Below are positions 40,820 to 61,694 of a stretch of DNA of 64,000 nucleotides, piece by piece. The translations under genes and the position numbers were made by a program. Below the pieces are notes generated by a model. The model saw nothing but the letters and a program-made list of their open reading frames with translations, was not told the origin of the DNA and ran no database searches. Source of the stretch: Escherichia coli (GTDB taxonomy: Bacteria > Pseudomonadota > Gammaproteobacteria > Enterobacterales > Enterobacteriaceae); the NCBI RefSeq assembly GCF_003790525.1, contig NZ_CP033636.1; one strand, written 5' to 3'. The first letter of the stretch is position 1, and the number at the start of each line of letters is the position of its first letter.

Positions 40820-40843
40820 CTTTTCCGACTGTAAGAGGTGTGT

Positions 40844-41236: not shown

Positions 41237-41269
41237 TTTATTGACTGAGAGCGTCCAGAAGGAAAAAAG

Positions 41270-41692: not shown

Positions 41693-41751
41693 CCACGTTT
41701 ATGTGCGTGTCCAAAAGTCACTTTTGAACATTCTCTTCCCGCCGTCTGCTT

Positions 41752-42363: not shown

Positions 42364-42469
42364 CCTTTAATCTCCAAAAAGCATTGTTTCACGAATAATT
42401 CCGATTTACCGGGCCAGTATAATCCATCGCAGGTTAATAACTAACAGGCTGAAAAGCATAAAGGTAGCT

Positions 42470-43279: not shown

Positions 43280-43324
43280 AGTTACTTTCACTTTTGATGA
43301 GTACGGCCATGCCGGTCATGGCCG

Positions 43325-45002: not shown

Positions 45003-45023
45003 AGCTACACTCGAATTCTCATA

Positions 45024-45039
45024 CTGTATGTATAAACAG
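45024..45039. promoter_or_regulatory. LexA (SOS) box CTGTATGTATAAACAG upstream of umuD-like gene
   Basis: Perfect CTGT-N8-ACAG, 22 bp upstream of the start codon. Confidence 0.7.
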
Positions 45040-45195
45040 TATTGCGAGTTACAGAGAAAAGATCAAATCTCTCCGGTAACGCTATCGAGCCTGACGAAAA
45101 ATTAAGCTTTGTCACAAACACCAAAAACCATCTTTTACCGATAATGGCGAGCTGGCCTACGAAGAAGGTATACAAGCTAGGATGAAAGGATTCTG

Positions 45196-45813
45196 ATGCC
45201 CCTCCCACCAAATTTTTTATCTCCTGAAGACCAGGCTGAGTACGATGCTTATATGTCAAGATTCAGCGAGATAAATCACTATTATGATTATCACACTGTC
45301 CCCGTGATTGACTGGTTCTTTAAACAAGCAACCGAGGCGTTGCATCACGAACTATGGATACCGGCCTGTACGAGCTTCCTGAACGGGATTGAAACATCAC
45401 TCATGGTTACGTTGAAGTCGCTGATGCTGAAACCAACAGTTAACGATCAGCATGCAGCTCCTGAGCTGGTGGACTTGGAGGGTATCTCCGTAATGAGTAA
45501 TGCCTTACTGAGAAAGGCCAAGCAGGAAGGGGTGCCGGTAGAATTACTTTCATTTCCAGCCGAGCAGGATATGTTGGTTAAGGTAGCAGCCGGGAGAACA
45601 CCTGAAGCAGAAATTGTCAGGCTGAGAAACAACCTATGCCATGGCAACATTCTGGAGTTTATCATGTCTGTTGATATCGGTACTTCAGGACCCATACGTA
45701 TTTTTACGCCTGAATGCTGTCGTGAACTGGCGCATGAACTTTCGTCCATTTCCAGGAATTGGGTGGTAGGTTTGCACAAGTACTGGGTCGACAACAATCT
45801 GATTTCCCCCTGA
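45196..45813 (+). CDS. hypothetical protein (205 aa)
   Basis: ORF track. Confidence 0.4.
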   Translation: MPLPPNFLSPEDQAEYDAYMSRFSEINHYYDYHTVPVIDWFFKQATEALHHELWIPACTSFLNGIETSLMVTLKSLMLKPTVNDQHAAPELVDLEGISVMSNALLRKAKQEGVPVELLSFPAEQDMLVKVAAGRTPEAEIVRLRNNLCHGNILEFIMSVDIGTSGPIRIFTPECCRELAHELSSISRNWVVGLHKYWVDNNLISP

Positions 45814-45962
45814 AGCTCCTTGAACCTTGCTTTCAGAAGCCAGGTGTATGAAACCCTATTGGATAATATTTAAAGCCAAAATATGGGGATCTCGTATTCG
45901 GTGACAGGCATGGTATAAATGATGTGTCTGAGCAACCATCATTGATAATCATGGAGTGAGTC

Positions 45963-46319
45963 ATGAAATTAAAATACCTTCTGTTATGTGCAACTCTGTC
46001 TGTCGCCTTTACCTCCTCTGCGGTCCTTGCATCTGAAAACGGGAAAAAACCGATCCCGGGCAAATCAGATGTGATGGTTGCCGATATTTGTTTAAAACCT
46101 GAAATCCAAAGTGAAACCGATTATAAAAAAACGAAAGAACTGGTAAGGACTGAGTTTGAAGAAAACTTGCCTGTTGGATCTAAAATCAAAGAAAAAGACT
46201 TGAATGCCGTAATTGAAGCATTTGCTACTCGTAAAAGGGACACGCCGGAGCGAGCGGACCATTGCCAAGAAAACGTACGTGAAAGATACTGGGAAATGAA
46301 CCCGGTGAAAGATAAATAA
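45963..46319 (+). CDS. small secreted protein (118 aa)
   Basis: Signal peptide MKLKYLLLCATLSVAFTSSAVLA; GGAG RBS. Confidence 0.45.
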   Translation: MKLKYLLLCATLSVAFTSSAVLASENGKKPIPGKSDVMVADICLKPEIQSETDYKKTKELVRTEFEENLPVGSKIKEKDLNAVIEAFATRKRDTPERADHCQENVRERYWEMNPVKDK

Positions 46320-46569
46320 AATACATTCACGTTGTATAATATAGAGGCTTCAATTCTGAAGCCTTTTTTATTTTCAGATTATTTTGATTCTGACAATAAT
46401 GAAATAAAATTGAGCATTATCGCTTAACACTGGATAAGAAAAAGAGCCATCTTTTATATTGGACAGGTTTGAATTTAAGGAATTTTGGATTCACAGTTTT
46501 CTGCGTTATTAGACGGCAAGGGCAATCTGGTATGATTCACCTAACACACGAATCTGGAAGGAAAAGTAT

Positions 46570-46713
46570 ATGGGTGACCTGGTCAGCAAAAATAGCATTG
46601 ACCGTTTAGAGCGATTTCATTCTTTGCTGGCGGGTCAGTACTGGACGTCCACTGACAGCATCCCTGAAGAGGGTATTGTGGCAGGGGATACACTGCTCAT
46701 TACGTCTTTGCGT
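46570..46713 (+). pseudogene. 5-prime fragment (48 codons) of a backbone gene truncated by IS26
   Basis: ATG with GGAAGGAAAAG RBS; frame runs straight into the IS26 left inverted repeat. Confidence 0.4.
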
Positions 46714-47533
46714 GGCACTGTTGCAAATAGTCGGTGGTGATAAACTTATCATCCCCTTTTGCTGATGGAGCTGCACATGAACCCATTCAAAGGCCGGCAT
46801 TTTCAGCGTGACATCATTCTGTGGGCCGTACGCTGGTACTGCAAATACGGCATCAGTTACCGTGAGCTGCAGGAGATGCTGGCTGAACGCGGAGTGAATG
46901 TCGATCACTCCACGATTTACCGCTGGGTTCAGCGTTATGCGCCTGAAATGGAAAAACGGCTGCGCTGGTACTGGCGTAACCCTTCCGATCTTTGCCCGTG
47001 GCACATGGATGAAACCTACGTGAAGGTCAATGGCCGCTGGGCGTATCTGTACCGGGCCGTCGACAGCCGGGGCCGCACTGTCGATTTTTATCTCTCCTCC
47101 CGTCGTAACAGCAAAGCTGCATACCGGTTTCTGGGTAAAATCCTCAACAACGTGAAGAAGTGGCAGATCCCACGATTCATCAACACGGATAAAGCGCCCG
47201 CCTATGGTCGCGCGCTTGCTCTGCTCAAACGCGAAGGCCGGTGCCCGTCTGACGTTGAACACCGACAGATTAAGTACCGGAACAACGTGATTGAATGCGA
47301 TCATGGCAAACTGAAACGGATAATCAACGCCACGCTGGGATTTAAATCCATGAAGACGGCTTACGCCACCATCAAAGGTATTGAGGTGATGCGTGCACTA
47401 CGCAAAGGCCAGGCCTCAGCATTTTATTATGGTGATCCCCTGGGCGAAATGCGCCTGGTAAGCAGAGTTTTTGAAATGTAAGGCCTTTGAATAAGACAAA
47501 AGGCTGCCTCATCGCTAACTTTGCAACAGTGCC
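46714..47533 (+). mobile_element. IS26 (820 bp), no flanking 8-bp target duplication
   Basis: 14-bp terminal repeats GGCACTGTTGCAAA / TTTGCAACAGTGCC; flanks CTTTGCGT versus GGCGAAGC differ. Confidence 0.95.
46777..47481 (+). CDS. tnpA: IS26 transposase Tnp26 (234 aa)
   Basis: MNPFKGRHFQRDIILWAVRWYCKYGISYRELQEM... recognised IS26 transposase. Confidence 0.95.
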   Translation: MNPFKGRHFQRDIILWAVRWYCKYGISYRELQEMLAERGVNVDHSTIYRWVQRYAPEMEKRLRWYWRNPSDLCPWHMDETYVKVNGRWAYLYRAVDSRGRTVDFYLSSRRNSKAAYRFLGKILNNVKKWQIPRFINTDKAPAYGRALALLKREGRCPSDVEHRQIKYRNNVIECDHGKLKRIINATLGFKSMKTAYATIKGIEVMRALRKGQASAFYYGDPLGEMRLVSRVFEM

Positions 47534-47689
47534 GGCGAAGCTTATCAGCGCTTCCAGTTGCGGACGCTTGACATCCTTGCCGGATGCCTTGTCGCTAAAA
47601 GCGCGATCAACCTTGACGCCTTCCAGTTGCCGTTCCGGGTTCTGGTCGAAGGTGCTGACCCTGATATACCCAATGCGCTGTCCAGTCAT
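47534..47689 (-). pseudogene. tnpR: Tn21-family resolvase tnpR, first 52 codons only, truncated by IS26
   Basis: MTGQRIGYIRVSTFDQNPERQLEGVKVDRAFSDKASGKDVKRPQLEALISFA then IS26 end. Confidence 0.85.
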
Positions 47690-47810
47690 GGAATTCCCTG
47701 CAAAATGTCAGGGAAGACTCTATGACCTTCAACGAGATATGTCAATAAATTCAAAATTCAATCCTATCCTGACGCAATTTACACATGGCATCTGACATCA
47801 GGTTAGGGTA
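47690..47810. promoter_or_regulatory. Tn21-type res site region (resolvase binding sites and tnpR promoter)
   Basis: Position between tnpR start and tnpM stop as in Tn21; boundaries approximate. Confidence 0.5.
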
Positions 47811-47814
47811 TGCC

Positions 47815-48165
47815 TCAACCTGACGGCGGCGAATCACAAGCGTCCGGTTTGACGCTGGTTTCGGTCGCAGTGCTGGCCCGCGCCTGGAAGCGCTGATAGC
47901 ACTCCAGCCCGCAGAAATGCTCCACGTACTCGGCCCCTTCCGGCGTGAAGGCGGCATCGAGCGGGATTTCCTTGCAGCACACGCAGCAACTGGTGCTCGG
48001 TTCATTGGCGTTCATGGTGGTGTTCCTCCATTGGTTGACGAAGCCGACGAAGGCCGCCGCCGGCATCGGCCTGGCGAACAGGAAACCCTGCACCGTGTCG
48101 CAACCCGCCTGCCGCAACCACGCAAGGCAGTCGGGTGTTTCCACACCCTCGGCTACCACCTCCAT
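47815..48165 (-). CDS. tnpM: TnpM (EAL-domain C-terminal remnant of urf2M, 116 aa)
   Basis: [33 protein letters not shown]...; start codon abuts integron IRi as in Tn21. Confidence 0.75.
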
Positions 48166-48190
48166 TGTCGTTTTCAGAAGACGGCTGCAC
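48166..48190. repeat. class 1 integron IRi (25-bp inverted repeat at the intI1 end)
   Basis: TGTCGTTTTCAGAAGACGGCTGCAC. Confidence 0.9.
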
Positions 48191-48367
48191 TGAACGTCAG
48201 AAGCCGACTGCACTATAGCAGCGGAGGGGTTGGATCCATCAGGCAACGACGGGCTGCTGCCGGCCATCAGCGGACGCAGGGAGGACTTTCCGCAACCGGC
48301 CGTTCGATGCGGCACCGATGGCCTTCGCGCAGGGGTAGTGAATCCGCCAGGATTGACTTGCGCTGCC

Positions 48368-49381
48368 CTACCTCTCACTAGTGAGGGGCGGCAGCGCATC
48401 AAGCGGTGAGCGCACTCCGGCACCGCCAACTTTCAGCACATGCGTGTAAATCATCGTCGTAGAGACGTCGGAATGGCCGAGCAGATCCTGCACGGTTCGA
48501 ATGTCGTAACCGCTGCGGAGCAAGGCCGTCGCGAACGAGTGGCGGAGGGTGTGCGGTGTGGCGGGCTTCGTGATGCCTGCTTGTTCTACGGCACGTTTGA
48601 AGGCGCGCTGAAAGGTCTGGTCATACATGTGATGGCGACGCACGACACCGCTCCGTGGATCGGTCGAATGCGTGTGCTGCGCAAAAACCCAGAACCACGG
48701 CCAGGAATGCCCGGCGCGCGGATACTTCCGCTCAAGGGCGTCGGGAAGCGCAACGCCGCTGCGGCCCTCGGCCTGGTCCTTCAGCCACCATGCCCGTGCA
48801 CGCGACAGCTGCTCGCGCAGGCTGGGTGCCAAGCTCTCGGGTAACATCAAGGCCCGATCCTTGGAGCCCTTGCCCTCCCGCACGATGATCGTGCCGTGAT
48901 CGAAATCCAGATCCTTGACCCGCAGTTGCAAACCCTCACTGATCCGCATGCCCGTTCCATACAGAAGCTGGGCGAACAAACGATGCTCGCCTTCCAGAAA
49001 ACCGAGGATGCGAACCACTTCATCCGGGGTCAGCACCACCGGCAAGCGCCGCGACGGCCGAGGTCTTCCGATCTCCTGAAGCCAGGGCAGATCCGTGCAC
49101 AGCACCTTGCCGTAGAAGAACAGCAAGGCCGCCAATGCCTGACGATGCGTGGAGACCGAAACCTTGCGCTCGTTCGCCAGCCAGGACAGAAATGCCTCGA
49201 CTTCGCTGCTGCCCAAGGTTGCCGGGTGACGCACACCGTGGAAACGGATGAAGGCACGAACCCAGTGGACATAAGCCTGTTCGGTTCGTAAACTGTAATG
49301 CAAGTAGCGTATGCGCTCACGCAACTGGTCCAGAACCTTGACCGAACGCAGCGGTGGTAACGGCGCAGTGGCGGTTTTCAT
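48368..49381 (-). CDS. intI1: class 1 integron integrase IntI1 (337 aa)
   Basis: [53 protein letters not shown]... recognised IntI1. Confidence 0.95.
49266..49294 (+). promoter_or_regulatory. integron cassette promoter Pc, variant with -35 TGGACA and -10 TAAACT (PcH1-type); P2 lacks GGG insertion
   Basis: TGGACA-N17-TAAACT inside the intI1 5-prime region; downstream TTGTTA-N14-TACAGT has the inactive 14-bp spacing. Confidence 0.7.
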
Positions 49382-49449
49382 GGCTTGTTATGACTGTTTT
49401 TTTGTACAGTCTATGCCTCGAGCATCCAAGCAGCAAGCGCGTTACGCCG

Positions 49450-49520
49450 TGGGTCGATGTTTGATGTTATGGAGCAGCAACGATGTTACGCAGCAGGGCA
49501 GTCGCCCTAAAACAAAGTTG
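49450..49520. other. attI1 recombination site
   Basis: 5-prime conserved segment end ...GCAGCAGGGCAGTCGCCCTAAAACAAAGTT followed by first cassette. Confidence 0.7.
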
Positions 49521-49547
49521 TACGTAGAACTCGAAGGCAATTTAAGT

Positions 49548-50390
49548 ATGAAAGAAAAGGTAGTTGTTGATAAAGCGATTTCACTCTATACCGAATCATT
49601 CGGCGACCCGGCCCATGAACCCATTATTCTGATCATGGGGGCAATGTCGTCTGCGGTGTGGTGGCCTGATGAGTTTTGTTCCCAACTTGCCAAAATGGGT
49701 CGCTATGTGATCCGGTACGACCACCGTGATACCGGGAAATCAACAAGCTATGAGCCAGGTCAGGCTCCATATTCCGTTGAAGAATTAGCAGATGATGTGG
49801 TTCGCGTCATTGATGGTTATGGTCTGGAAGCTGCTCATTTAGTCGGCATGTCTTTGGGGGGATTTCTTTCCCAGCTTGTAGCTCTCAAGTATCCGAAACG
49901 TGTGAAGAGCTTGACGCTGATTGCTTCAGAACGGCTTGCAGATGCAGATCCGGATATGCCCGCTTTTGATCCTGCCATCATTGAGTATCACCAACGGGCG
50001 GAATCGCTGGATTGGTCTGATAGAGATGCTGTCGTCGCGTATCAGGTCGGAGCGTGGCGAATCAACTCAGGTACTGCGCATGCTTTTGACGCTGAGAAGA
50101 TACAAAACATCGCTGAGTTAAATTTTGATCGCACTCCGAATATCCTGACAACATTCAACCACACTACTTTAGGTGGTGGCGAGAGATGGCTCGGGAGATT
50201 AAATGAGATAGCTGTACCAACTTTGATCATTCACGGCACGGAGGATCCTGTACTTCCTTATGTGCATGGGTTGGCACTGAAAGATGCGATTCGTGGTTCA
50301 AAAATGCTGACACTCGAAGGCACGGGACATGAGTTGCATCATGAAGACTGGCCGAGGATTATCCAGGCGATTAAGGGGCAAACGTCATAG
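49548..50390 (+). CDS. estX: EstX (alpha/beta hydrolase, putative esterase) gene cassette
   Basis: [35 protein letters not shown]...; GMSLGG nucleophile elbow; first cassette of sul3-type array. Confidence 0.8.
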
Positions 50391-50485
50391 CTATCGGTTG
50401 CACCGTACAACAAGTTGCTGCACCGGAAAAATTACTCGCTGCGCTCGCAATTTTCCGGTGAGCAAGGCGTTAGCGCCCACAACGC

Positions 50486-51094
50486 ATGTCTCTCGCACTC
50501 TTTGACTTCGATGGCACAATTACCACTCGCGAGACGATGCCGGATTTTGTGCGGCGGTCCGTGAGCCGACGTCGACTGCTTGTGGGACAACTGCTTCTGG
50601 CGCCGCTCGTGCTTGGGTATAAGATTGGGATCTTGTCTGGCACCCTGATCCGTCGCGTCATCGTTCGCTTCGCTTACAGCGGCATCCCGGCCTCGGTCCT
50701 GGAGGCCCAAGGTCGTGACTTCGCTCAGAGCTACCTGCCCAATACCCTCCGCGGCGAGGCAATGCAGCGCATCGCATGGCACAAAGCGCAGGGGCACAAG
50801 GTTGTCGTTGTTTCCGGCGGACTTGAGGCTTACTTGGAGCCGTGGTGCGACTCGCACGGCGTTGAGCTCATCTGTTCTTCCTTGCAACAGTCGGACGGAA
50901 TCCTAACGGGCCGCTATGAAGGGCGGCAGTGCGTCTTGACGGAGAAGGCTCGCTTGGTCCGTGAGCGCTACGACCTGGCGACATATCCGACCATCTACGC
51001 GTACGGAGACACGCCGGAGGACCTGGATATGCTGGCCATTGCTACTAAGCAGTACTATCAGTGGCAAGAGGTTGGCGTCGCAGGTGGGCGCTAA
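50486..51094 (+). CDS. psp: Psp (HAD-family putative phosphoserine phosphatase) gene cassette
   Basis: MSLALFDFDGTITTRE HAD motif I; second cassette. Confidence 0.8.
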   Translation: MSLALFDFDGTITTRETMPDFVRRSVSRRRLLVGQLLLAPLVLGYKIGILSGTLIRRVIVRFAYSGIPASVLEAQGRDFAQSYLPNTLRGEAMQRIAWHKAQGHKVVVVSGGLEAYLEPWCDSHGVELICSSLQQSDGILTGRYEGRQCVLTEKARLVRERYDLATYPTIYAYGDTPEDLDMLAIATKQYYQWQEVGVAGGR

Positions 51095-51151
51095 CAAGTC
51101 ATTCAAGCCGACGCCGCTTCGCGGCGCGGCTTAATTCTGGTGTTAGACATC

Positions 51152-51943
51152 ATGAGGGTAGCGGTGACCATCGAAATTTCGAACCAACTATCAGAGGTGC
51201 TAAGCGTCATTGAGCGCCATCTGGAATCAACGTTGCTGGCCGTGCATTTGTACGGCTCCGCAGTGGATGGCGGCCTGAAGCCATACAGCGATATTGATTT
51301 GTTGGTTACTGTGGCCGTAAAGCTTGATGAAACGACGCGGCGAGCATTGCTCAATGACCTTATGGAGGCTTCGGCTTTCCCTGGCGAGAGCGAGACGCTC
51401 CGCGCTATAGAAGTCACCCTTGTCGTGCATGACGACATCATCCCGTGGCGTTATCCGGCTAAGCGCGAGCTGCAATTTGGAGAATGGCAGCGCAATGACA
51501 TTCTTGCGGGTATCTTCGAGCCAGCCATGATCGACATTGATCTAGCTATCCTGCTTACAAAAGCAAGAGAACATAGCGTTGCCTTGGTAGGTCCGGCAGC
51601 GGAGGAATTCTTTGACCCGGTTCCTGAACAGGATCTATTCGAGGCGCTGAGGGAAACCTTGAAGCTATGGAACTCGCAGCCCGACTGGGCCGGCGATGAG
51701 CGAAATGTAGTGCTTACGTTGTCCCGCATTTGGTACAGCGCAATAACCGGCAAAATCGCGCCGAAGGATGTCGCTGCCGACTGGGCAATAAAACGCCTAC
51801 CTGCCCAGTATCAGCCCGTCTTACTTGAAGCTAAGCAAGCTTATCTGGGACAAAAAGAAGATCACTTGGCCTCACGCGCAGATCACTTGGAAGAATTTAT
51901 TCGCTTTGTGAAAGGCGAGATCATCAAGTCAGTTGGTAAATGA
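51152..51943 (+). CDS. aadA2: aminoglycoside 3''-adenylyltransferase AadA2 (streptomycin/spectinomycin)
   Basis: MRVAVTIEISNQLSEVLSVIERHLESTLLAVHLYGSAVDGGLKP...; followed by about 60-bp attC. Confidence 0.9.
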   Translation: MRVAVTIEISNQLSEVLSVIERHLESTLLAVHLYGSAVDGGLKPYSDIDLLVTVAVKLDETTRRALLNDLMEASAFPGESETLRAIEVTLVVHDDIIPWRYPAKRELQFGEWQRNDILAGIFEPAMIDIDLAILLTKAREHSVALVGPAAEEFFDPVPEQDLFEALRETLKLWNSQPDWAGDERNVVLTLSRIWYSAITGKIAPKDVAADWAIKRLPAQYQPVLLEAKQAYLGQKEDHLASRADHLEEFIRFVKGEIIKSVGK

Positions 51944-52076
51944 TGTCTAACAATTCGTTCAAGCCGACCGCGCTACGCGCGGCGGCTTAACTCCGGCGTT
52001 GGGCGCACAATAAGGCTCCTTGCAGAGTTGCTTGAAAGTTGTTACGATTCAAATTCAATCATGAGATAGTCAGCAG

Positions 52077-52106
52077 ATGAGCACTTCCAAGAACGCAGAC
52101 AAGTAA
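52077..52106 (+). CDS. cmlA leader peptide (MSTSKNADK) of translational attenuator
   Basis: 9-codon ORF about 100 bp upstream of cmlA1 start, as in inducible cmlA. Confidence 0.7.
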   Translation: MSTSKNADK

Positions 52107-52204
52107 GCCGCAGCAACCTTCATTTTTCGGTTGTTGCGGCGTTCTCATGAATCCTTTTGCTCTACGGGAGCGCCGCCAAATCCTTTGTTCAAGGAGATGG
52201 TTTC

Positions 52205-53464
52205 GTGAGCTCAAAAAACTTTAGTTGGCGGTACTCCCTTGCCGCCACGGTGTTGTTGTTATCACCGTTCGATTTATTGGCATCACTCGGCATGGACATG
52301 TACTTGCCAGCAGTGCCGTTTATGCCAAACGCGCTTGGTACGACAGCGAGCACAATTCAGCTTACGCTGACAACGTACTTGGTCATGATTGGTGCCGGTC
52401 AGCTCTTGTTTGGACCGCTATCGGACCGACTGGGGCGCCGCCCCGTTCTACTGGGAGGTGGCCTCGCCTACGTTGTGGCGTCAATGGGCCTCGCTCTTAC
52501 GTCATCGGCTGAAGTCTTTCTGGGGCTTCGGATTCTTCAGGCTTGTGGTGCCTCGGCGTGCCTTGTTTCCACATTTGCAACAGTACGTGACATTTACGCA
52601 GGTCGCGAGGAAAGTAATGTCATTTACGGCATACTCGGATCCATGCTGGCCATGGTCCCGGCGGTAGGCCCATTGCTCGGAGCGCTCGTCGACATGTGGC
52701 TTGGGTGGCGGGCTATCTTTGCGTTTCTAGGTTTGGGCATGATCGCTGCATCTGCAGCAGCGTGGCGATTCTGGCCTGAAACCCGGGTGCAACGAGTTGC
52801 GGGCTTGCAATGGTCGCAGCTGCTACTCCCCGTTAAGTGCCTGAACTTCTGGTTGTACACGTTGTGTTACGCCGCTGGAATGGGTAGCTTCTTCGTCTTT
52901 TTCTCCATTGCGCCCGGACTAATGATGGGCAGGCAAGGTGTGTCTCAGCTTGGCTTCAGCCTGCTGTTCGCCACAGTGGCAATTGCCATGGTGTTTACGG
53001 CTCGTTTTATGGGGCGTGTGATACCCAAGTGGGGCAGCCCAAGTGTCTTGCGAATGGGAATGGGATGCCTGATAGCTGGAGCAGTATTGCTTGCCATCAC
53101 CGAAATATGGGCTTTGCAGTCCGTGTTAGGCTTTATTGCTCCAATGTGGCTAGTGGGTATTGGTGTCGCCACAGCGGTATCTGTGGCGCCCAATGGCGCT
53201 CTTCGAGGATTCGACCATGTTGCTGGAACGGTCACGGCAGTCTACTTCTGCTTGGGCGGTGTACTGCTAGGAAGCATCGGAACGTTGATCATTTCGCTGT
53301 TGCCGCGCAACACGGCTTGGCCGGTTGTCGTGTACTGTTTGACCCTTGCAACAGTCGTGCTCGGTCTGTCTTGTGTTTCCCGAGTGAAGGGCTCTCGCGG
53401 CCAGGGGGAGCATGATGTGGTCGCGCTACAAAGTGCGGAAAGTACATCAAATCCCAATCGTTGA
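52205..53464 (+). CDS. cmlA1: chloramphenicol efflux MFS transporter CmlA1 (419 aa, GTG start)
   Basis: AAGGAG RBS then GTG; VSSKNFSWRYSLAATVLLLSPFDLLASLGMDMYLP... recognised CmlA. Confidence 0.9.
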   Translation: MSSKNFSWRYSLAATVLLLSPFDLLASLGMDMYLPAVPFMPNALGTTASTIQLTLTTYLVMIGAGQLLFGPLSDRLGRRPVLLGGGLAYVVASMGLALTSSAEVFLGLRILQACGASACLVSTFATVRDIYAGREESNVIYGILGSMLAMVPAVGPLLGALVDMWLGWRAIFAFLGLGMIAASAAAWRFWPETRVQRVAGLQWSQLLLPVKCLNFWLYTLCYAAGMGSFFVFFSIAPGLMMGRQGVSQLGFSLLFATVAIAMVFTARFMGRVIPKWGSPSVLRMGMGCLIAGAVLLAITEIWALQSVLGFIAPMWLVGIGVATAVSVAPNGALRGFDHVAGTVTAVYFCLGGVLLGSIGTLIISLLPRNTAWPVVVYCLTLATVVLGLSCVSRVKGSRGQGEHDVVALQSAESTSNPNR

Positions 53465-53556
53465 GAGAATGTGGCAAGCTATCGCCCAACAAATCGCTGC
53501 AGCCGACCCAAAACCGCTACGCGGTTTCGGTCGGCTGAGCTCAGGCGTTAAACATC

Positions 53557-54348
53557 ATGAGGGAAGCGGTGATCGCCGAAGTATCGACTCAACTATCAGA
53601 GGTAGTTGGCGTCATCGAGCGCCATCTCGAACCGACGTTGCTGGCCGTACATTTGTACGGCTCCGCAGTGGATGGCGGCCTGAAGCCACACAGTGATATT
53701 GATTTGCTGGTTACGGTGACCGTAAGGCTTGATGAAACAACGCGGCGAGCTTTGATCAACGACCTTTTGGAAACTTCGGCTTCCCCTGGAGAGAGCGAGA
53801 TTCTCCGCGCTGTAGAAGTCACCATTGTTGTGCACGACGACATCATTCCGTGGCGTTATCCAGCTAAGCGCGAACTGCAATTTGGAGAATGGCAGCGCAA
53901 TGACATTCTTGCAGGTATCTTCGAGCCAGCCACGATCGACATTGATCTGGCTATCTTGCTGACAAAAGCAAGAGAACATAGCGTTGCCTTGGTAGGTCCA
54001 GCGGCGGAGGAACTCTTTGATCCGGTTCCTGAACAGGATCTATTTGAGGCGCTAAATGAAACCTTAACGCTATGGAACTCGCCGCCCGACTGGGCTGGCG
54101 ATGAGCGAAATGTAGTGCTTACGTTGTCCCGCATTTGGTACAGCGCAGTAACCGGCAAAATCGCGCCGAAGGATGTCGCTGCCGACTGGGCAATGGAGCG
54201 CCTGCCGGCCCAGTATCAGCCCGTCATACTTGAAGCTAGACAGGCTTATCTTGGACAAGAAGAAGATCGCTTGGCCTCCCGCGCAGATCAGTTGGAAGAA
54301 TTTGTTCACTACGTGAAAGGCGAGATCACCAAGGTAGTCGGCAAATAA
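53557..54348 (+). CDS. aadA1: aminoglycoside 3''-adenylyltransferase AadA1
   Basis: MREAVIAEVSTQLSEVVGVIERHLEPTLLAVHLYGSAVDGGLKPHSDIDLL... recognised AadA1. Confidence 0.9.
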   Translation: MREAVIAEVSTQLSEVVGVIERHLEPTLLAVHLYGSAVDGGLKPHSDIDLLVTVTVRLDETTRRALINDLLETSASPGESEILRAVEVTIVVHDDIIPWRYPAKRELQFGEWQRNDILAGIFEPATIDIDLAILLTKAREHSVALVGPAAEELFDPVPEQDLFEALNETLTLWNSPPDWAGDERNVVLTLSRIWYSAVTGKIAPKDVAADWAMERLPAQYQPVILEARQAYLGQEEDRLASRADQLEEFVHYVKGEITKVVGK

Positions 54349-54517
54349 TGTCTAACAATTCGTTCAAGCCGACGCCGCTTCGCGGCGCGGCTTAACTCAA
54401 GCGTTAGATGCCAGATTTGGCGTTGCGTATGCTCACAGAAAATCGACAGCCGCAAGACTGTTTTTGGCAACTCATAGCCACCACTATTTATCCTTCATAC
54501 CGTAGAGGAGATTGCAC

Positions 54518-54850
54518 GTGAAGAACTGGCTCTTTCTGGCTATTGCAATATTTGGTGAGGTCGTCGCAACTTCCGCACTGAAGTCCAGCCATGGATTCAC
54601 CAAGTTAGTTCCTTCTGTTGTAGTTGTGGCTGGCTACGGGCTTGCGTTCTATTTCCTCTCTCTCGCACTCAAGTCCATCCCGGTCGGCATTGCTTATGCT
54701 GTTTGGGCTGGCCTCGGCATCGTACTTGTGGCAGCTATCGCTTGGATCTTCCATGGCCAGAAACTAGACTTGTGGGCGTTCGTTGGCATGGGACTTATCG
54801 TTAGTGGCGTCGCCGTTCTAAATCTGCTATCCAAGGTCAGCGCACATTGA
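54518..54850 (+). CDS. qacH: SMR-family quaternary ammonium compound efflux protein QacH (GTG start, about 110 aa)
   Basis: [27 protein letters not shown]...; followed by aadA-type attC; last cassette. Confidence 0.8.
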
Positions 54851-55096
54851 TCGGGCTGGCATCTAACAGTTCATTCAAGCCGACGCCGCTTCGCGGCGCG
54901 GCTTAATTCAGGTGTTAGTCGGACGCCTACGGCGCCGAGGAAAAAAGAAACCAAACCATTCTTGCTGCCAAAGAGAAAAACCCCTTACGGTGGCGTACTG
55001 GGAAAGTGCGTATCTACGACGCCTTGCCGGTCTCAATGTCATGCCGTCCTCTTTCGAAGGCTGCTTGATGCAAACCTCTCAAAAATCTGGCATAAA

Positions 55097-55783
55097 CTAT
55101 CTTGACATATTCCGATTGAACACCTTCCGAATATCAGCGGCTATCAGCGGGATCTCATCTTTTTTCGTGACGTAGGAGTGGGCATTCTGCTGCAGATGAA
55201 ACTGGCAGCGTTGCCACAGAATTCCAGGGAAGACAGCATCGATTGCCGCGCGCAGTCCTGAGTGGTCATCACTGGTGATCATTCGCAGGCCGTGCATCCC
55301 TCGTCGTACGAGACCCTCGAGAAAGGAACGCCAGTTTACCTCTGCCTCACTGTTCGCGACTTCGGCGTCAAGAATATGCCGATTCCCGCTGTAATCAACG
55401 CCAATAGCCACTAGAAGCGCCTGCTTGACCACATGGGAACCGACGCGAACCGATTCATAGGTCGCATCAAGTACCAAGTATTGAATCTGTCCGACAGGCT
55501 GCGCCTTCCAAGACGTAATCTCTTCATCGAGCTCCTTTGCCAGCCTGCTGACCTGGGACGAGCTGACTTCGGTGCCACAAAGAATTTCGACGATATCCGA
55601 GACCCTGCGGGTACTTACTCCTTTGACATACATTTCGGCGATGGCGAGCTTGAGAGCACGCTCACTGCGCATGCCTTTCTCGATGCAGCTGGGATAAAAC
55701 TCCATCCCGCGAACTTGTGGTACTTTCAAGAGGACTTTCCCGGTCGCAAGATTGAATATTGGATTATTTGGATTTACCAACAA
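55097..55783 (-). pseudogene. IS256-family (mutator-type) transposase fragment, IS440-like remnant
   Basis: ...ALKLAIAEMYVKGVSTRRV... mutator-family core; N-terminal region missing; abrupt drop in GC at about 55775. Confidence 0.6.
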
Positions 55784-56029
55784 ACACTACTATTTAGCTA
55801 CGAAAACTCAAGAGAAGTACACAAAACCTTTTGGAAGTGATGGAAGTTTAAGTCCTCTTGATTATAGTGTAGGTATTGGAACAGGTTTAGAATTAGGACA
55901 TTTCCAGTTTATGTTTGGCTATGATTACCCTCTTAGTAACAGTTCGAAAGATCCAGACCTAAGTCAAGTACGCCAACACAACTTCAGAGCAAGTATAGCA
56001 TATTCATTTAGAAAGCTAAAAAAATAAAA

Positions 56030-56821
56030 CTAACCTAGGGCTTTGGATATTTTCAAGGCATCTGATAAAGACTTAACATCATGGGTGCGGAGATAATCTG
56101 CACCTTTTTTGTATGCATACATTTCTGCTGCAAGAGTTGGTGCTAAACGAGATTTCACATCGGTTCCAGTTATTTTACCTAAGAATGATTTCCGTGACAC
56201 TGCAATCATTACTTGCAAATTAAAAGCTTCTTGAATTTCAGGGAAACGCTTCAAAACAAGAATAGATGTTTCTGGATTAGAGCCTAAAAAGAAGCCCATA
56301 CCCGGATCAAGAATAATTCGTTCACGCTTTACACCAGCCTCAACTAAAGCAGCAATTCTTTCTTTAAAAAATTCCATCATGGAAGTAAAAACCTCTTCCG
56401 GATTCGTTTCAACTTTAGTAGCTGCACCAATTCGCTGAACGGAGTGCATCAACACAAGTTTGCAATCTGACTTTGCCAAGCCTGAATAAATCTCAGGATA
56501 AGGAAAACCTTGAATATCATTAATAAAATCAACCTTTTGTTCTATGCAAAAACTCTGAACCTCAGGTTTAAATGTATCAACAGAAATAGAAATGCCTTTT
56601 TCTTTTAAAGCCTTAATGACAGGTTTGAGTCTTTTGATTTCTTCCACAACGCCCACTTCAGTTGTATCAGGATTACTGGAAGCGGCTCCCAAATCAATCA
56701 CATCTGCTCCATCTTCAACCAAATGCAGAGCATGCTCAATTGCCTTATCTGTATCTAAATAAAGTCCTCCATCGGAAAAACTATCGGTGGTTATATTTAC
56801 GATTCCAAAAATCTTGCTCAT
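56030..56821 (-). CDS. sul3: sulfonamide-resistant dihydropteroate synthase Sul3 (263 aa)
   Basis: MSKIFGIVNITTDSFSDGGLYLDTDKAIEHALHLVEDGADVIDLGAASSNPDTTEV... recognised Sul3; AT-rich segment. Confidence 0.9.
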   Translation of the reverse strand: MSKIFGIVNITTDSFSDGGLYLDTDKAIEHALHLVEDGADVIDLGAASSNPDTTEVGVVEEIKRLKPVIKALKEKGISISVDTFKPEVQSFCIEQKVDFINDIQGFPYPEIYSGLAKSDCKLVLMHSVQRIGAATKVETNPEEVFTSMMEFFKERIAALVEAGVKRERIILDPGMGFFLGSNPETSILVLKRFPEIQEAFNLQVMIAVSRKSFLGKITGTDVKSRLAPTLAAEMYAYKKGADYLRTHDVKSLSDALKISKALG

Positions 56822-57289
56822 ATCATTTTGCTTTGATTACAAAAGTAGCATTTATCTTAATTGACTAATTATCACTTACGCAAATTGACACATTTTCCCT
56901 ATCTTTGCAGCCTAATTTTTTTGTTTTAATTCATTATGAAAACTGATAGGAACTGTCATTTCGAGTTTTTCGCGGTTTTGGGTCAAAATTCGGTTTTTTC
57001 CCCGAACTACGACTGTTTTCGCACCCCGAACAACTAATCCAATCAGAATTTTCCGGCAACGCCGACTCCAAGAAGTGTAATTCCAGTCTATTTCTGCCGT
57101 CAACCCCTGATTCGCGTTAATGCGACAAAGCTCAAACACATAACTCCCCCACGAAGCCATATAAACTCCGATTTCGAGGTGTTATCCTGTTCCGCATAAA
57201 CTTCGTTTTTGGGTATTATACCTACACCAAAGCAAGAAGATTATGGGTCCAAACTTCATTTGTATATTTTGCAAACAAATATCTGCCTG

Positions 57290-57535
57290 TCATATCTGTC
57301 GGAGTGTGGTGATACTCCTTTGCATTAAAAATGCGCTGATAAAAGGTAGTTCAGCAAAAGGCGAAACGCCAATAAATATATCTATAACCGGTTTCGCCCG
57401 TTGATTGGGTATCGCCGTGCTTCCGATATGTTCAATGGCTACGGCATGAGAACCGAAAAAATGGAGCAATTTTATTTTCTCTTCTTCAAAATTCTTTGTC
57501 CAATCCGGGTTATATTCCATAATTTCAATTTTCAT
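57290..57535 (-). CDS. small hypothetical protein (81 aa), possibly a gene fragment
   Basis: ORF track only; AT-rich sul3-associated segment. Confidence 0.3.
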   Translation of the reverse strand: MKIEIMEYNPDWTKNFEEEKIKLLHFFGSHAVAIEHIGSTAIPNQRAKPVIDIFIGVSPFAELPFISAFLMQRSITTLRQI

Positions 57536-57572
57536 GATAGTTTCGTCCTTGCCTCAAAAACCATGTTTGGTA

Positions 57573-58436
57573 TTATACTCCATATCTCTCCGGTGCAGGA
57601 ATAGCCTTTTCTGATGCACGGCTAACAGCTTCCCATTCTTCCCAGGTAGCCATCCGTGCTTTTAAGGTATCCATCGCCAAATCGTATACCATGCTGCCAA
57701 GGATAAGCCTCAAAGGCGGATTATTGCTGGCTACTAATTTCATAAGGGCTTCCGCTGCCAAGGAAGGATCACTATCGACCGAATCTTCGGAATACTGTTT
57801 CGCCAGCTCATCGCGCAGTGTACCGTATGAATCTAATGGATTGCTGTAACTCATCGAAGTGTATAAATCTGTCCAATATCCTCCTGGTTCCACCATAGTG
57901 AGTTTCACTCCGAAATGTTCCGCTTCTTTTGCTAAGGCTTCACTCATTCCTTCCAGCGCAAATTTACTTGCACTGTAAATACCAGACATCGGACCCGAGA
58001 TAATAGCGCCAATGCTTGTAATCTGTATGATATGTCCAGAACGCTGCGACCTCAAATAGGGCATCACTGCCTGACAAACCCAAAGAGCTCCAAAAAAGTT
58101 TGTGTCCATTAGTTTCCGAGCATCGGATTCGTTTAGTTCTTCAATCATACCCATAGTCATGATACCCGCATTATTAACAACAATATCAAGCCTACCGAAA
58201 TGTTTAACTGCTGTTTCAACCGTAGAAAAAACAGCCTCCCTATCTGTAACATCGAGGTTTAATGGCAGTAAGCTCTCTTGATATGTTTCTTCTAGCTTCG
58301 CCAAATTATCGATAGTCCTTGCAACTGCAACAACTTTATCCCCGGCTTTCAAGGCGGCGCATGTAAAAGCATAGCCAAGCCCCTTGCTTGCTCCGGTAAT
58401 AAACCATACTCTTTTATTTTCGCTATTAGGTATCAT
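57573..58436 (-). CDS. short-chain dehydrogenase/reductase (SDR) family protein (287 aa)
   Basis: TGASKGLG cofactor motif, NNAG, and S-x(n)-YSASK catalytic motif. Confidence 0.7.
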   Translation of the reverse strand: MIPNSENKRVWFITGASKGLGYAFTCAALKAGDKVVAVARTIDNLAKLEETYQESLLPLNLDVTDREAVFSTVETAVKHFGRLDIVVNNAGIMTMGMIEELNESDARKLMDTNFFGALWVCQAVMPYLRSQRSGHIIQITSIGAIISGPMSGIYSASKFALEGMSEALAKEAEHFGVKLTMVEPGGYWTDLYTSMSYSNPLDSYGTLRDELAKQYSEDSVDSDPSLAAEALMKLVASNNPPLRLILGSMVYDLAMDTLKARMATWEEWEAVSRASEKAIPAPERYGV

Positions 58437-58581
58437 AGATATTCTCCTTTAGGCTATTATAGAAAGATTATTATAAGCGAAATTAATACCGTTAAACGCC
58501 ATGAGCCCGACAATTTTGAGCACTTTGTTTTGTACTCCCAGAAGCTCACCACTACAAATTATCATCAACCCGGTCCTTTTT

Positions 58582-58841
58582 TCAGTCCACTTGCGGTTTC
58601 ATTGTTACTTTGTCATAGCGTCGTGTCAGAATGCGGCAGAGAACAGCGTTTACTATCAACGCAACACCAGACCAGAAAAACCATGTATTAACACCTATAA
58701 CCTCAACAACCGGACCTGCAACAAGTAAGCCTATCGGCATAGAAAGAGTCATGGCGGTCATCAAAAGGGAAAACACCTTGCCCATCATTTCAGGGGCAAT
58801 GCTTTCTTGAACATAAGCCATAACAGGAACATTCATAAATG
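58582..58841 (-). pseudogene. mef(B): 3-prime fragment of macrolide efflux MFS gene mef(B), truncated by IS26
   Basis: MFS C-terminal helices ...AYVQESIAPEMMGKVFSLLMTAMTLSMPIGLLVAGPVVEVIG...; frame runs into IS26 end at 58842. Confidence 0.5.
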
Positions 58842-59661
58842 GGCACTGTTGCAAAGTTAGCGATGAGGCAGCCTTTTGTCTTATTCAAAGGCCTTACATT
58901 TCAAAAACTCTGCTTACCAGGCGCATTTCGCCCAGGGGATCACCATAATAAAATGCTGAGGCCTGGCCTTTGCGTAGTGCACGCATCACCTCAATACCTT
59001 TGATGGTGGCGTAAGCCGTCTTCATGGATTTAAATCCCAGCGTGGCGTTGATTATCCGTTTCAGTTTGCCATGATCGCATTCAATCACGTTGTTCCGGTA
59101 CTTAATCTGTCGGTGTTCAACGTCAGACGGGCACCGGCCTTCGCGTTTGAGCAGAGCAAGCGCGCGACCATAGGCGGGCGCTTTATCCGTGTTGATGAAT
59201 CGTGGGATCTGCCACTTCTTCACGTTGTTGAGGATTTTACCCAGAAACCGGTATGCAGCTTTGCTGTTACGACGGGAGGAGAGATAAAAATCGACAGTGC
59301 GGCCCCGGCTGTCGACGGCCCGGTACAGATACGCCCAGCGGCCATTGACCTTCACGTAGGTTTCATCCATGTGCCACGGGCAAAGATCGGAAGGGTTACG
59401 CCAGTACCAGCGCAGCCGTTTTTCCATTTCAGGCGCATAACGCTGAACCCAGCGGTAAATCGTGGAGTGATCGACATTCACTCCGCGTTCAGCCAGCATC
59501 TCCTGCAGCTCACGGTAACTGATGCCGTATTTGCAGTACCAGCGTACGGCCCACAGAATGATGTCACGCTGAAAATGCCGGCCTTTGAATGGGTTCATGT
59601 GCAGCTCCATCAGCAAAAGGGGATGATAAGTTTATCACCACCGACTATTTGCAACAGTGCC
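58842..59661 (-). mobile_element. IS26 (820 bp), second copy, inverted relative to the first
   Basis: Terminal repeats GGCACTGTTGCAAA / TTTGCAACAGTGCC; internal sequence identical to first copy. Confidence 0.95.
58894..59598 (-). CDS. tnpA: IS26 transposase Tnp26
   Basis: Identical protein to first IS26 copy. Confidence 0.95.
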   Translation of the reverse strand: MNPFKGRHFQRDIILWAVRWYCKYGISYRELQEMLAERGVNVDHSTIYRWVQRYAPEMEKRLRWYWRNPSDLCPWHMDETYVKVNGRWAYLYRAVDSRGRTVDFYLSSRRNSKAAYRFLGKILNNVKKWQIPRFINTDKAPAYGRALALLKREGRCPSDVEHRQIKYRNNVIECDHGKLKRIINATLGFKSMKTAYATIKGIEVMRALRKGQASAFYYGDPLGEMRLVSRVFEM

Positions 59662-60435
59662 CAATACGAATGGCGAAAAGCCGAGCTCATCGGTCAGCTT
59701 CTCAACCTTGGGGTTACCCCCGGCGGTGTGCTGCTGGTCCACAGCTCCTTCCGTAGCGTCCGGCCCCTCGAAGATGGGCCACTTGGACTGATCGAGGCCC
59801 TGCGTGCTGCGCTGGGTCCGGGAGGGACGCTCGTCATGCCCTCGTGGTCAGGTCTGGACGACGAGCCGTTCGATCCTGCCACGTCGCCCGTTACACCGGA
59901 CCTTGGAGTTGTCTCTGACACATTCTGGCGCCTGCCAAATGTAAAGCGCAGCGCCCATCCATTTGCCTTTGCGGCAGCGGGGCCACAGGCAGAGCAGATC
60001 ATCTCTGATCCATTGCCCCTGCCACCTCACTCGCCTGCAAGCCCGGTCGCCCGTGTCCATGAACTCGATGGGCAGGTACTTCTCCTCGGCGTGGGACACG
60101 ATGCCAACACGACGCTGCATCTTGCCGAGTTGATGGCAAAGGTTCCCTATGGGGTGCCGAGACACTGCACCATTCTTCAGGATGGCAAGTTGGTACGCGT
60201 CGATTATCTCGAGAATGACCACTGCTGTGAGCGCTTTGCCTTGGCGGACAGGTGGCTCAAGGAGAAGAGCCTTCAGAAGGAAGGTCCAGTCGGTCATGCC
60301 TTTGCTCGGTTGATCCGCTCCCGCGACATTGTGGCGACAGCCCTGGGTCAACTGGGCCGAGATCCGTTGATCTTCCTGCATCCGCCAGAGGCGGGATGCG
60401 AAGAATGCGATGCCGCTCGCCAGTCGATTGGCTGA
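59662..60435 (+). CDS. aac(3)-IV: aminoglycoside N-acetyltransferase AAC(3)-IV (apramycin/gentamicin); annotated ATG replaced by the IS26 end
   Basis: Begins QYEWRKAELIGQLLNLGVTPGGVLLVHSS... right after IS26 terminal repeat; ends ...CEECDAARQSIG. Confidence 0.85.
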   Translation, partial: QYEWRKAELIGQLLNLGVTPGGVLLVHSSFRSVRPLEDGPLGLIEALRAALGPGGTLVMPSWSGLDDEPFDPATSPVTPDLGVVSDTFWRLPNVKRSAHPFAFAAAGPQAEQIISDPLPLPPHSPASPVARVHELDGQVLLLGVGHDANTTLHLAELMAKVPYGVPRHCTILQDGKLVRVDYLENDHCCERFALADRWLKEKSLQKEGPVGHAFARLIRSRDIVATALGQLGRDPLIFLHPPEAGCEECDAARQSIG

Positions 60436-60663: not shown

Positions 60664-61689
60664 ATGAAAAAGCCTGAACTCACCGCGACGTCTGTCGAGA
60701 AGTTTCTGATCGAAAAGTTCGACAGCGTCTCCGACCTGATGCAGCTCTCGGAGGGCGAAGAATCTCGTGCTTTCAGCTTCGATGTAGGAGGGCGTGGATA
60801 TGTCCTGCGGGTAAATAGCTGCGCCGATGGTTTCTACAAAGATCGTTATGTTTATCGGCACTTTGCATCGGCCGCGCTCCCGATTCCGGAAGTGCTTGAC
60901 ATTGGGGAATTCAGCGAGAGCCTGACCTATTGCATCTCCCGCCGTGCACAGGGTGTCACGTTGCAAGACCTGCCTGAAACCGAACTGCCCGCTGTTCTGC
61001 AGCCGGTCGCGGAGGCCATGGATGCGATCGCTGCGGCCGATCTTAGCCAGACGAGCGGGTTCGGCCCATTCGGACCGCAAGGAATCGGTCAATACACTAC
61101 ATGGCGTGATTTCATATGCGCGATTGCTGATCCCCATGTGTATCACTGGCAAACTGTGATGGACGACACCGTCAGTGCGTCCGTCGCGCAGGCTCTCGAT
61201 GAGCTGATGCTTTGGGCCGAGGACTGCCCCGAAGTCCGGCACCTCGTGCACGCGGATTTCGGCTCCAACAATGTCCTGACGGACAATGGCCGCATAACAG
61301 CGGTCATTGACTGGAGCGAGGCGATGTTCGGGGATTCCCAATACGAGGTCGCCAACATCTTCTTCTGGAGGCCGTGGTTGGCTTGTATGGAGCAGCAGAC
61401 GCGCTACTTCGAGCGGAGGCATCCGGAGCTTGCAGGATCGCCGCGGCTCCGGGCGTATATGCTCCGCATTGGTCTTGACCAACTCTATCAGAGCTTGGTT
61501 GACGGCAATTTCGATGATGCAGCTTGGGCGCAGGGTCGATGCGACGCAATCGTCCGATCCGGAGCCGGGACTGTCGGGCGTACACAAATCGCCCGCAGAA
61601 GCGCGGCCGTCTGGACCGATGGCTGTGTAGAAGTACTCGCCGATAGTGGAAACCGACGCCCCAGCACTCGTCCGAGGGCAAAGGAATAG
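60664..61689 (+). CDS. aph(4)-Ia: hygromycin B phosphotransferase Hph / APH(4)-Ia (341 aa)
   Basis: MKKPELTATSVEKFLIEKFDSVSDLMQLSEGEESRAFSFDVGGRGYVLRVNSCADGFYKDRYVYRHF... recognised Hph. Confidence 0.95.
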   Translation: MKKPELTATSVEKFLIEKFDSVSDLMQLSEGEESRAFSFDVGGRGYVLRVNSCADGFYKDRYVYRHFASAALPIPEVLDIGEFSESLTYCISRRAQGVTLQDLPETELPAVLQPVAEAMDAIAAADLSQTSGFGPFGPQGIGQYTTWRDFICAIADPHVYHWQTVMDDTVSASVAQALDELMLWAEDCPEVRHLVHADFGSNNVLTDNGRITAVIDWSEAMFGDSQYEVANIFFWRPWLACMEQQTRYFERRHPELAGSPRLRAYMLRIGLDQLYQSLVDGNFDDAAWAQGRCDAIVRSGAGTVGRTQIARRSAAVWTDGCVEVLADSGNRRPSTRPRAKE

Positions 61690-61694
61690 AGTAG

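Follow-up and report, generated by a model that had tools for sequence, protein, structure and literature searches.

A sul3-associated class 1 integron between inverted IS26 copies in an IncHI2-type plasmid region of Escherichia coli

Within a 64,000-nucleotide stretch of Escherichia coli DNA (contig NZ_CP033636.1 of assembly GCF_003790525.1; hereafter the window), the segment 47534..58841, read from the sequence, is exactly the DNA between two IS26 copies. From left to right it holds a stub of the Tn21-type resolvase gene tnpR, the res region and tnpM; the inner terminal repeat IRi of a class 1 integron with its integrase gene intI1 and recombination site attI1; six gene cassettes, estX, psp, aadA2, cmlA1, aadA1 and qacH; an internal fragment of the insertion sequence IS440; and an AT-rich module that carries the sulfonamide resistance gene sul3 and closes with the remains of mef(B) against the second IS26. 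The coordinates of all features are collected in Table 1.

With very little room for doubt, this segment reproduces the sul3-associated ("atypical") class 1 integron known from the literature. It is situated in that part of an IncHI2 conjugative plasmid where resistance genes are gathered and has an IS26 on either side, the two copies being inverted. The comparison drew on 72,556 plasmids and 5,426 complete E. coli genomes. In a megablast search of the plasmids, the 11,308 bp are 100% identical over 100% of their length to many records, with full-length carriers at 100.0% among the plasmids of E. coli, E. fergusonii, Salmonella, K. pneumoniae and K. oxytoca, and at least 404 of the 5000 best records carry at least 80% of the segment in one place. 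Given full-length identity to many plasmids, chance is not an issue for the reality of the element. The annotation of the identical records agrees with the segment gene by gene. To the left, window 1..46713 is an IncHI2-type conjugative backbone with trh/tra genes (trhH, traG, traD), mobH, umuDC and an HNH endonuclease gene, and is 99.8–100% identical to many plasmids. The integron array is thus an already known and very common element, and the present exact copy is an ordinary one.

An earlier note, made from the letters alone, had proposed the order estX-psp-aadA2-cmlA1-aadA1-qacH followed by IS440 and sul3. The same order is found in the identical records, by curated models and in published descriptions (PMC4129628, PMC6206278, PMC5761274), and the identities and boundaries given for the genes agree with those of the plasmids that match at full length. 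The array types themselves are attributed to Antunes et al. 2007 and Curiao et al. 2011, as cited in those three papers, one of which lists this array repeatedly, mostly with the promoter variant PcH1 (PMC4129628). Each element that the note lists is present where it was placed, and the seven specific claims that were tested all stand. Five details go beyond the earlier note: tnpR is only a stub, the IS26 copies are inverted, sul3 lies on the opposite strand, qacH is the gene that NCBI calls qacL, and estX is a resistance gene.

Table 1. Features of the segment 47534..58841 and of its immediate surroundings, in window coordinates.
Feature	Coordinates	Strand	Description
IS26-L	46714..47533	+	820 bp; transposase 46777..47481 (+); left boundary, just outside the segment
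tnpR remnant	47534..47689	-	first 52 codons (156 bp 5' stub) of Tn21-type resolvase, cut by IS26-L
Tn21 res region	47690..47814	-	between tnpM and tnpR, within the identical tnpM-res block; assigned as a whole region, not by subsites
tnpM	47815..48165	-	C-terminal remnant of EAL-domain gene urf2M, split by integron insertion
IRi	48166..48190	+	25 bp, TGTCGTTTTCAGAAGACGGCTGCAC; inner terminal repeat of class 1 integron, abutting tnpM
intI1	48368..49381	-	intact, 337 aa, variant R32_H39
Pc	49266..49294	+	TGGACA-N17-TAAACT (PcH1), identified from sequence; inside intI1, reads into the cassettes
P2	49388..49413	+	TTGTTA-N14-TACAGT, inactive form with 14-bp spacer
LexA-type box	49394..49409		CTGTTTTTTTGTACAG, overlapped by P2
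attI1	49471..49517	+	crossover between G49517 and TT49518
estX cassette	49518..50469	+	952 bp; CDS 49548..50390; macrolide esterase
psp cassette	50470..51142	+	673 bp; CDS 50486..51094; HAD-IB family hydrolase
aadA2 cassette	51143..51998	+	856 bp; CDS 51152..51943; streptomycin/spectinomycin adenylyltransferase
cmlA1 cassette	51999..53547	+	1549 bp; fourth position; CDS from GTG 52205 to 53464
cmlA1 candidate promoter	52020..52048	+	TTGCAG-N17-TACGAT
cmlA1 leader ORF	52077..52106	+	9 codons, MSTSKNADK
cmlA1 inverted repeats	52107..52118 / 52129..52140	+	perfect 12-bp hairpin directly after the leader stop
cmlA1 Shine-Dalgarno sequence	52192..52198	+	AAGGAGA
aadA1 cassette	53548..54403	+	856 bp; CDS 53557..54348
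qacH (NCBI qacL) cassette	54404..54914	+	511 bp; CDS 54518..54850; complete attC; last cassette
spacer	54915..55114		200 bp between last attC and IS256-family fragment
IS440 (tnp440)	55115..55755	-	641-bp internal IS256-family fragment with neither terminal repeat
orf91	55752..56027	+	orphan 91-codon ORF starting at the GC/homology break
sul3 module	55756..58841	-	AT-rich, GC 0.398
sul3	56030..56821	-	Sul3 model 613.6 bits, cutoff 475
GrpB-like ORF	57290..57535	-
SDR oxidoreductase	57573..58436	-	curated model match above cutoff
mef(B) 3' remnant	58582..58841	-	last 260 bp, cut by IS26-R
IS26-R	58842..59661	-	820 bp; transposase 58894..59598 (-); right boundary
aph(4)-Ia	60664..61689		right of aac(3)-IVa; coordinates transferred from L004 with a 53-bp offset
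IS6-family element, not IS26	about 62111..62863	-	coordinates transferred from L004 with a 53-bp offset

The left end of the segment can be compared base by base with Tn21 in plasmid R100. Over 47534..49519 the two are 99.75% identical across 1,986 bp, tnpM and res agree at 476 of 476 positions, and the junction of IRi with tnpM has the same sequence; the sole differences are an A in place of G at 49292, a GGG missing from P2, and a single-nucleotide difference at 49421. What is left of tnpR matches nucleotides 1-156 of the Tn21 gene, and its 52 residues are all identical to the N-terminus of the intact 191-residue resolvase in a close relative (L002). tnpM is 100% identical to Tn21; its product resembles the C-terminal ends of EAL phosphodiesterases weakly, and in identical records it bears the label "DUF3330, missing N-terminus" from the Prokaryotic Genome Annotation Pipeline (PGAP). 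The Tn21 context that had been proposed, running from tnpR through res and tnpM to IRi, therefore stands, with tnpR reduced to a stub.

The 5'-conserved segment, which the earlier note had taken to be intact and of the PcH1 type, is so. The integrase matches NF011946 at 799.5 bits (cutoff 435) over positions 1-337 of 337, and the A at 49292, which is G in Tn21/In2, turns the -10 hexamer of Pc from TAAGCT into TAAACT; the variants of this promoter, PcH1 among them, are defined in PMC4129628. P2 lacks the GGG insertion that activates it in In2. From established knowledge of these promoters, the array would be transcribed from the weak-to-intermediate PcH1 inside intI1, with P2 inactive. The junction of attI1 with the first cassette reads AAACAAAG followed directly by TTGTAC, and the site is matched at full length (49471..49546) by Rfam RF02912 with 61.8 bits, the gathering score being 56. 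The family's own description is "putative aminoglycoside riboswitch / attI site". In this copy the gene that follows the match is estX and no aac or aad gene, which is consistent with attI1 rather than a drug-specific riboswitch; the view that the aminoglycoside "riboswitch" is simply attI1 has been put forward before (PMC8876359). An Rfam scan of 46000..60000 returned no match other than this attI-site model, and Rfam has no family for the cmlA leader.

Cassette boundaries were taken from core sites of the GTTRRRY type in the sequence, cut between G and TT. Curated models identify the products: EstX matches NF033124 (660 bits, cutoff 600), the psp product TIGR01490 (112.8 bits, cutoff 98.3), the aadA2 product an AadA-family equivalog (503 bits, cutoff 375), CmlA its own model (949 bits, cutoff 875) and AadA1 likewise (597.6 bits, cutoff 587). 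The name aadA2 comes from a 100% identity call by AMRFinder in identical records. To our knowledge, psp has no resistance role. The last gene is called qacH in the literature on sul3 integrons, and NCBI models assign it to QacL: it reaches 227 bits with the QacL model but only 74.5 with that of staphylococcal QacH, the cutoff being 205 for both. EstX keeps the triad Ser102/Asp233/His261; the enzyme was shown in 2024 to be an esterase of 16-membered macrolides, hydrolysing tylosin, tilmicosin, tildipirosin and leucomycin A5 (PMC11214618).

The first bases of every cassette can pair with the inverse core of the attC that belongs to it, as TTGGGC does with GCCCAAC in cmlA1 and TTAGAT with ATCTAAC in the qac cassette. 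The bottom strands of all six attC sites fold as imperfect hairpins with a bulged base, at z-scores of -2.0 to -6.3 (psp -6.3, qac -5.6). With an intact IntI1, attI1 and six complete attC sites, the cassettes should in principle still be open to excision and reshuffling. One relative, a K. pneumoniae record (NZ_CP138816.1, L005:11205-11495, aligned with window 54330..55130), has lost exactly the 511-bp qac cassette. The hybrid attC left behind switches from the aadA1 type to the qac type within a TCA that both share, immediately before the core, and not between G and TT, which suggests recombination between near-identical attC sites rather than canonical excision by the integrase. As proof of integrase-mediated excision this deletion was rejected, because the crossover lies inside the shared stem region.

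At the right end, the 3'-conserved segment of classical integrons is replaced, as the earlier note had it. A BLAST search with all parts of Tn21 and In2 found no qacEΔ1-sul1-orf5, no tni (tniA/tniB), no IS1326 or IS1353, no mer and no Tn21 tnpA in the window. The outer repeat IRt was not found within three mismatches anywhere in the 64 kb, where IRi is the only site resembling IRi or IRt. A classical ("clinical") integron is ruled out, since the 3'-conserved segment of R100 has no BLAST match in the window; lacking that segment, the element is filed as the sul3-type variant. What stands in its place is the published module tnp440-sul3-orfA-orfB followed by 260 bp of mefB truncated by IS26 (PMC5761274), and the order of the qacH cassette, tnp440, sul3, two open reading frames and the mef(B) remnant at IS26 is found here as in sul3-type integrons.

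The remaining expectations for this end were also correct: an IS256-family remnant, a fall in GC near 55775 marking a sul3 module of foreign origin, and mef(B) truncated at the second IS26. IS440 matches the IS256-family model at 231.7 bits (threshold 150) over profile positions 31-244 of 338, and it aligns with residues 69-281 of a 375-residue relative, P0017, and with nucleotides 322-962 of the 1325-bp contig (L006) that encodes it. PGAP describes it in identical records as "missing N-terminus and C-terminus". As a full-length IS256-family element, with a DDE transposase and inverted repeats, IS440 was rejected because both ends are gone, and without either end it is immobile. The 182-200 bp after the last attC were considered as the missing end of IS440, and this too was rejected: the spacer 54915..55114 has no coding similarity in any frame and no similarity to the full-length IS relative. 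The relative without the qac cassette still has this spacer. Across the region, GC changes most sharply at 55751, from 0.527 to 0.34 with 300-nt flanks, and this step coincides with the break in IS440 homology. At this break begins orf91, which has the lowest GC in the region (0.337) and no NCBIfam family match; it may preserve the C-terminal part of a gene that belonged to the donor context of sul3. Together with two open reading frames and the mef(B) remnant, sul3 lies on the strand opposite to the cassettes. Being outside the array, on the other strand and in foreign AT-rich DNA, it would have to use its own promoter. The mef(B) remnant encodes residues 325-409 of 409, falls below the model cutoff as expected for a fragment, and should contribute nothing to resistance.

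The cmlA1 cassette brings its own control region. The candidate promoter agrees in place with the one described in the literature, about 145 bp ahead of the start codon (PMC8876359), and the claim that the leader peptide predicts chloramphenicol-inducible attenuation is matched by the presence of both the peptide MSTSKNADK, with KNAD, and a sequestered ribosome-binding site. KNAD is the motif of chloramphenicol-dependent arrest in the CmlA leader (PMC10192921), and a promoter with translation attenuation has been described for cmlA (PMC8876359, which cites Stokes and Hall 1991 for the inducibility of the cmlA1 cassette). Chloramphenicol would stall a ribosome on the KNAD of the leader and so free the base-paired Shine-Dalgarno sequence; with the published arrangement present, expression should be inducible by chloramphenicol. 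The Shine-Dalgarno sequence is indeed paired, AAGGA with UCCUU, in both the minimum-free-energy and the centroid fold. Of its seven bases, four (52192-52195) have a probability of 0.00-0.01 of being unpaired and 52198 is also in a pair, with 52196-52197 forming part of an internal loop within the helix. Taken as a whole, the leader fold has a z-score of only -2.4.

Stalling was examined by equilibrium folding, with four ribosome footprints imposed on the leader and opening energies computed for the translation-initiation region. In this setting, a weak test, the right arm of hairpin 1 pairs with GGGAGCGCCGC and the outer helix around the Shine-Dalgarno sequence is lost. No result contradicts the identification of the integron. 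Of the points that can be set against the reading given here, one comes from the 3' end, where the sequence 54915..55114 matches no source among the comparisons made. The others concern the mechanism and come from the equilibrium model of the leader: the 5-bp UCCUU/AAGGA core persists under the stalled footprints, so that the Shine-Dalgarno sequence is not freed, and opening it costs 9.1 kcal/mol in the free leader and 8.8-12.2 kcal/mol in the stalled one. As modelled, either the switch at 52060..52230 would be kinetic, or the textbook picture of two hairpins would be incomplete for this leader.

It could be argued from these figures that cmlA1 is expressed constitutively, by read-through from Pc and from its own promoter, and that the leader has no regulatory effect here. 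The stalled-ribosome folds neither exposed the Shine-Dalgarno sequence nor lowered its opening energy, and only the 5-bp core helix holds it once the outer helix is lost. Yet this is the same 1549-bp cassette with the same leader, which published work describes as inducible and as subject to arrest that depends on KNAD (PMC8876359, citing Stokes and Hall 1991; PMC10192921), and a kinetic switch driven by a ribosome is tested only weakly by folding at equilibrium. Constitutive expression seems quite unlikely. Stall-dependent induction of cmlA1, which was not reproduced in silico, should hold on the strength of the published experiments with the same cassette.

The two IS26 copies raise the question of mobility. 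They are identical at 820 of 820 bases and mutually inverted, with their transposase genes facing inward; the terminal repeats of IS26-L read GGCACTGTTGCAAA and TTTGCAACAGTGCC, and its transposase is of the IS6 family (278 bits). No 8-bp target-site duplication was found around either copy or around the pair, in direct or reverse-complement form: the flanking octamers are CTTTGCGT and GGCGAAGC at one copy and CATAAATG and CAATACGA at the other, and none match each other. Translocatable units of IS26 form between directly oriented copies. With inverted copies and no target duplications, no such unit is expected here.

The outer junctions are themselves common. The IS26/ΔtnpR junction occurs in at least 121 plasmids and the ΔmefB/IS26 junction in at least 596. 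In some plasmids, for example NZ_CP061127.1, the IS26/ΔtnpR junction also lies beside other integrons elsewhere. At the same backbone position, two close relatives (L002:3778-5705 and L004:1234-3161) show two IS26 copies, the first truncated and the second inverted, together with an intact tnpR; unlike them, the window has at 46714..47689 a single intact IS26 that cuts tnpR at codon 52. Since the left junction differs in this way among close relatives, the boundaries of the segment arose through separate IS26 events.

These observations bear on the possibility that the 11.3-kb segment with its two IS26 copies travels as one piece, being an active compound or pseudo-compound transposon that might, for instance, release a translocatable unit. 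Precise bounding by two identical 820-bp IS26 copies would suit such an element, as would the presence of the same segment on many replicon types and the credit given to IS26 for moving sul3 integrons (PMC6206278). Set against this are the inverted orientation with inward-facing transposases, where units need direct copies, the want of matching 8-bp duplications at either IS26 or the pair, and the left junction that varies in relatives with intact tnpR (L002, L004). Movement as a unit is on balance quite unlikely. To judge from its parts, the segment is incapable of self-transposition: it has neither IRt nor tni, neither Tn21 tnpA nor the terminal repeats (IRs), the IS256-family piece is internal only, and the IS26 copies are inverted. 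As there is no complete self-mobile element, spread would be with the plasmid that carries it, and by IS26-mediated or homologous recombination. What inverted copies could do is invert the DNA between them, and inversion rather than excision of a unit is to be expected. Inversion by IS26 has been proposed for a related structure (PMC5923156), and IncHI2/IS26 contexts have been described (PMC6206278, PMC5923156).

A further question is whether every gene of the array is alive. All cassette genes and sul3 are uninterrupted open reading frames. RefSeq/PGAP nevertheless calls aadA2 and aadA1 "frameshifted" in the identical plasmids pHNAH212872 and pNDM33-1 (L002, L004), and such flags on both aadA genes would, if taken at face value, make parts of the array dead genes. 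This is very unlikely. In the window, both are uninterrupted open reading frames of 263 codons that match AadA models end to end; in identical records, AMRFinder assigns them to aadA2 and aadA1 at 100% identity; and the PGAP spans run 47 bp beyond the stop codon into attC, which points to the annotation itself. The "frameshifted" labels are thus probably an annotation artefact.

Least credible of all, to the point of being negligible, is the idea that the segment is a complete, self-mobile transposon of the Tn21 or Tn402 family carrying an integron: the Tn21-identical junction of tnpR, res, tnpM and IRi is what speaks for it, and the window offers only 156 bp of tnpR and no tnpA, mer, Tn21 terminal repeat, tni or IRt. 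A complete Tn21, with tnpA, intact tnpR, 38-bp repeats and mer, is ruled out on these grounds, and the want of IRt and tni in the window likewise rules out a Tn402-like transposon.

Beyond IS26-R lie further resistance genes. The insertion sequence abuts codon 2 of aac(3)-IVa at the junction 59661/59662, and 53 bp found in relatives are absent here, namely 50 bp of upstream sequence and the GTG start codon. An in-frame ATG within IS26 (59623) gives a fusion of 270 residues, 59623..60435, which begins MISLSPPTICNSA and continues into QYEWRK. A 50-nt query centred on this junction found it in only 2 of the 72,556 plasmids, both from K. pneumoniae, and gave no match among the 5,426 complete E. 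coli genomes; the usual form of aac(3)-IVa is in at least 641 records. In one of the two junction plasmids, the CARD reference for AAC(3)-IVa is matched at 100% from the ATG at 59623, and the IS26-fused gene is therefore a recognised version. It presumably corresponds to the original description of IS140-aacC4. Besides the genes in Table 1, 60664..64000 holds two truncated genes, one of the AAC(3) family and one for a Tn3-family transposase that is unrelated to Tn21 tnpA. At the other end of the window, an IS150-family insertion lies within the first 21.7 kb of the IncHI2 backbone.

No examined record combines the IS26-cut tnpR, the complete six-cassette integron and the IS26-aac(3)-IVa fusion. 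As none has all three, this arrangement of known modules may be new to the databases, and we hold it possible, though only tentatively, that the source plasmid carries a previously undeposited combination.

In terms of phenotype, the gene content predicts resistance to streptomycin and spectinomycin, chloramphenicol, sulfonamides, quaternary ammonium compounds, tylosin and tilmicosin, with estX counting as a resistance gene in its own right for the last two drugs. The integron is a very widespread, livestock-associated multiresistance array, here on an IncHI2-type conjugative plasmid, and it is found in farm animals and in people. The value of the present analysis lies in annotation and surveillance rather than in new biology: it yields clean coordinates for every cassette and junction and flags the "frameshifted" aadA artefact in RefSeq. 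The spacer 54915..55114 and orf91, both present in every copy of the element, might yet inform on the donor of sul3.

Comparison with known systems places the element among its relatives. With Tn21/In2 (R100, NC_002134) it shares the start of tnpR, res, tnpM, the IRi junction, intI1 and attI1, at 99.75% over 1,986 bp, as well as an aadA1 cassette that is 99.8% identical. It differs in having PcH1 and not the TAAGCT form, in a P2 without GGG, in the lack of qacEΔ1-sul1-orf5, IS1326/IS1353, tni, IRt, mer and tnpA, and in its cassette array and 3' end. With IS26 pseudo-compound transposons and translocatable units it has in common an identical pair of IS26 flanking a resistance segment, but here the copies are inverted, not direct, and are without target-site duplications. 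In4 of Tn1696 is the source of the characterised cmlA1 cassette and of its attenuation model (Stokes and Hall 1991 and Bissonnette et al. 1991, as reported in PMC8876359). As far as that published description goes, the likeness extends to a promoter that the cassette itself carries about 145 bp ahead of the start codon, a leader of nine codons, inverted repeats and a base-paired Shine-Dalgarno sequence; the integron here is another one, with the cassette in fourth place and a different 3' end. Close IncHI2 relatives keep tnpR intact behind another IS26 pair, whereas IS26-L cuts it at codon 52 in the window.

From the sequence comparison as a whole, the element is not a classical integron with a 3'-conserved segment, a Tn402-like transposon, Tn21 or an IS26 translocatable unit; in every tested feature it is a sul3-associated class 1 integron. 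The published form of that integron runs intI1-estX-psp-aadA2-cmlA1-aadA1-qacH-IS440-sul3-orfA-orfB-mef(B) remnant-IS26. It agrees with the present copy in cassette order, PcH1, the qacH-tnp440-sul3 module, the 260-bp mef(B) remnant and the terminal IS26 (PMC4129628, PMC6206278, PMC5761274), and there is no difference from it within 47534..58841, only the outer context varying among carriers.

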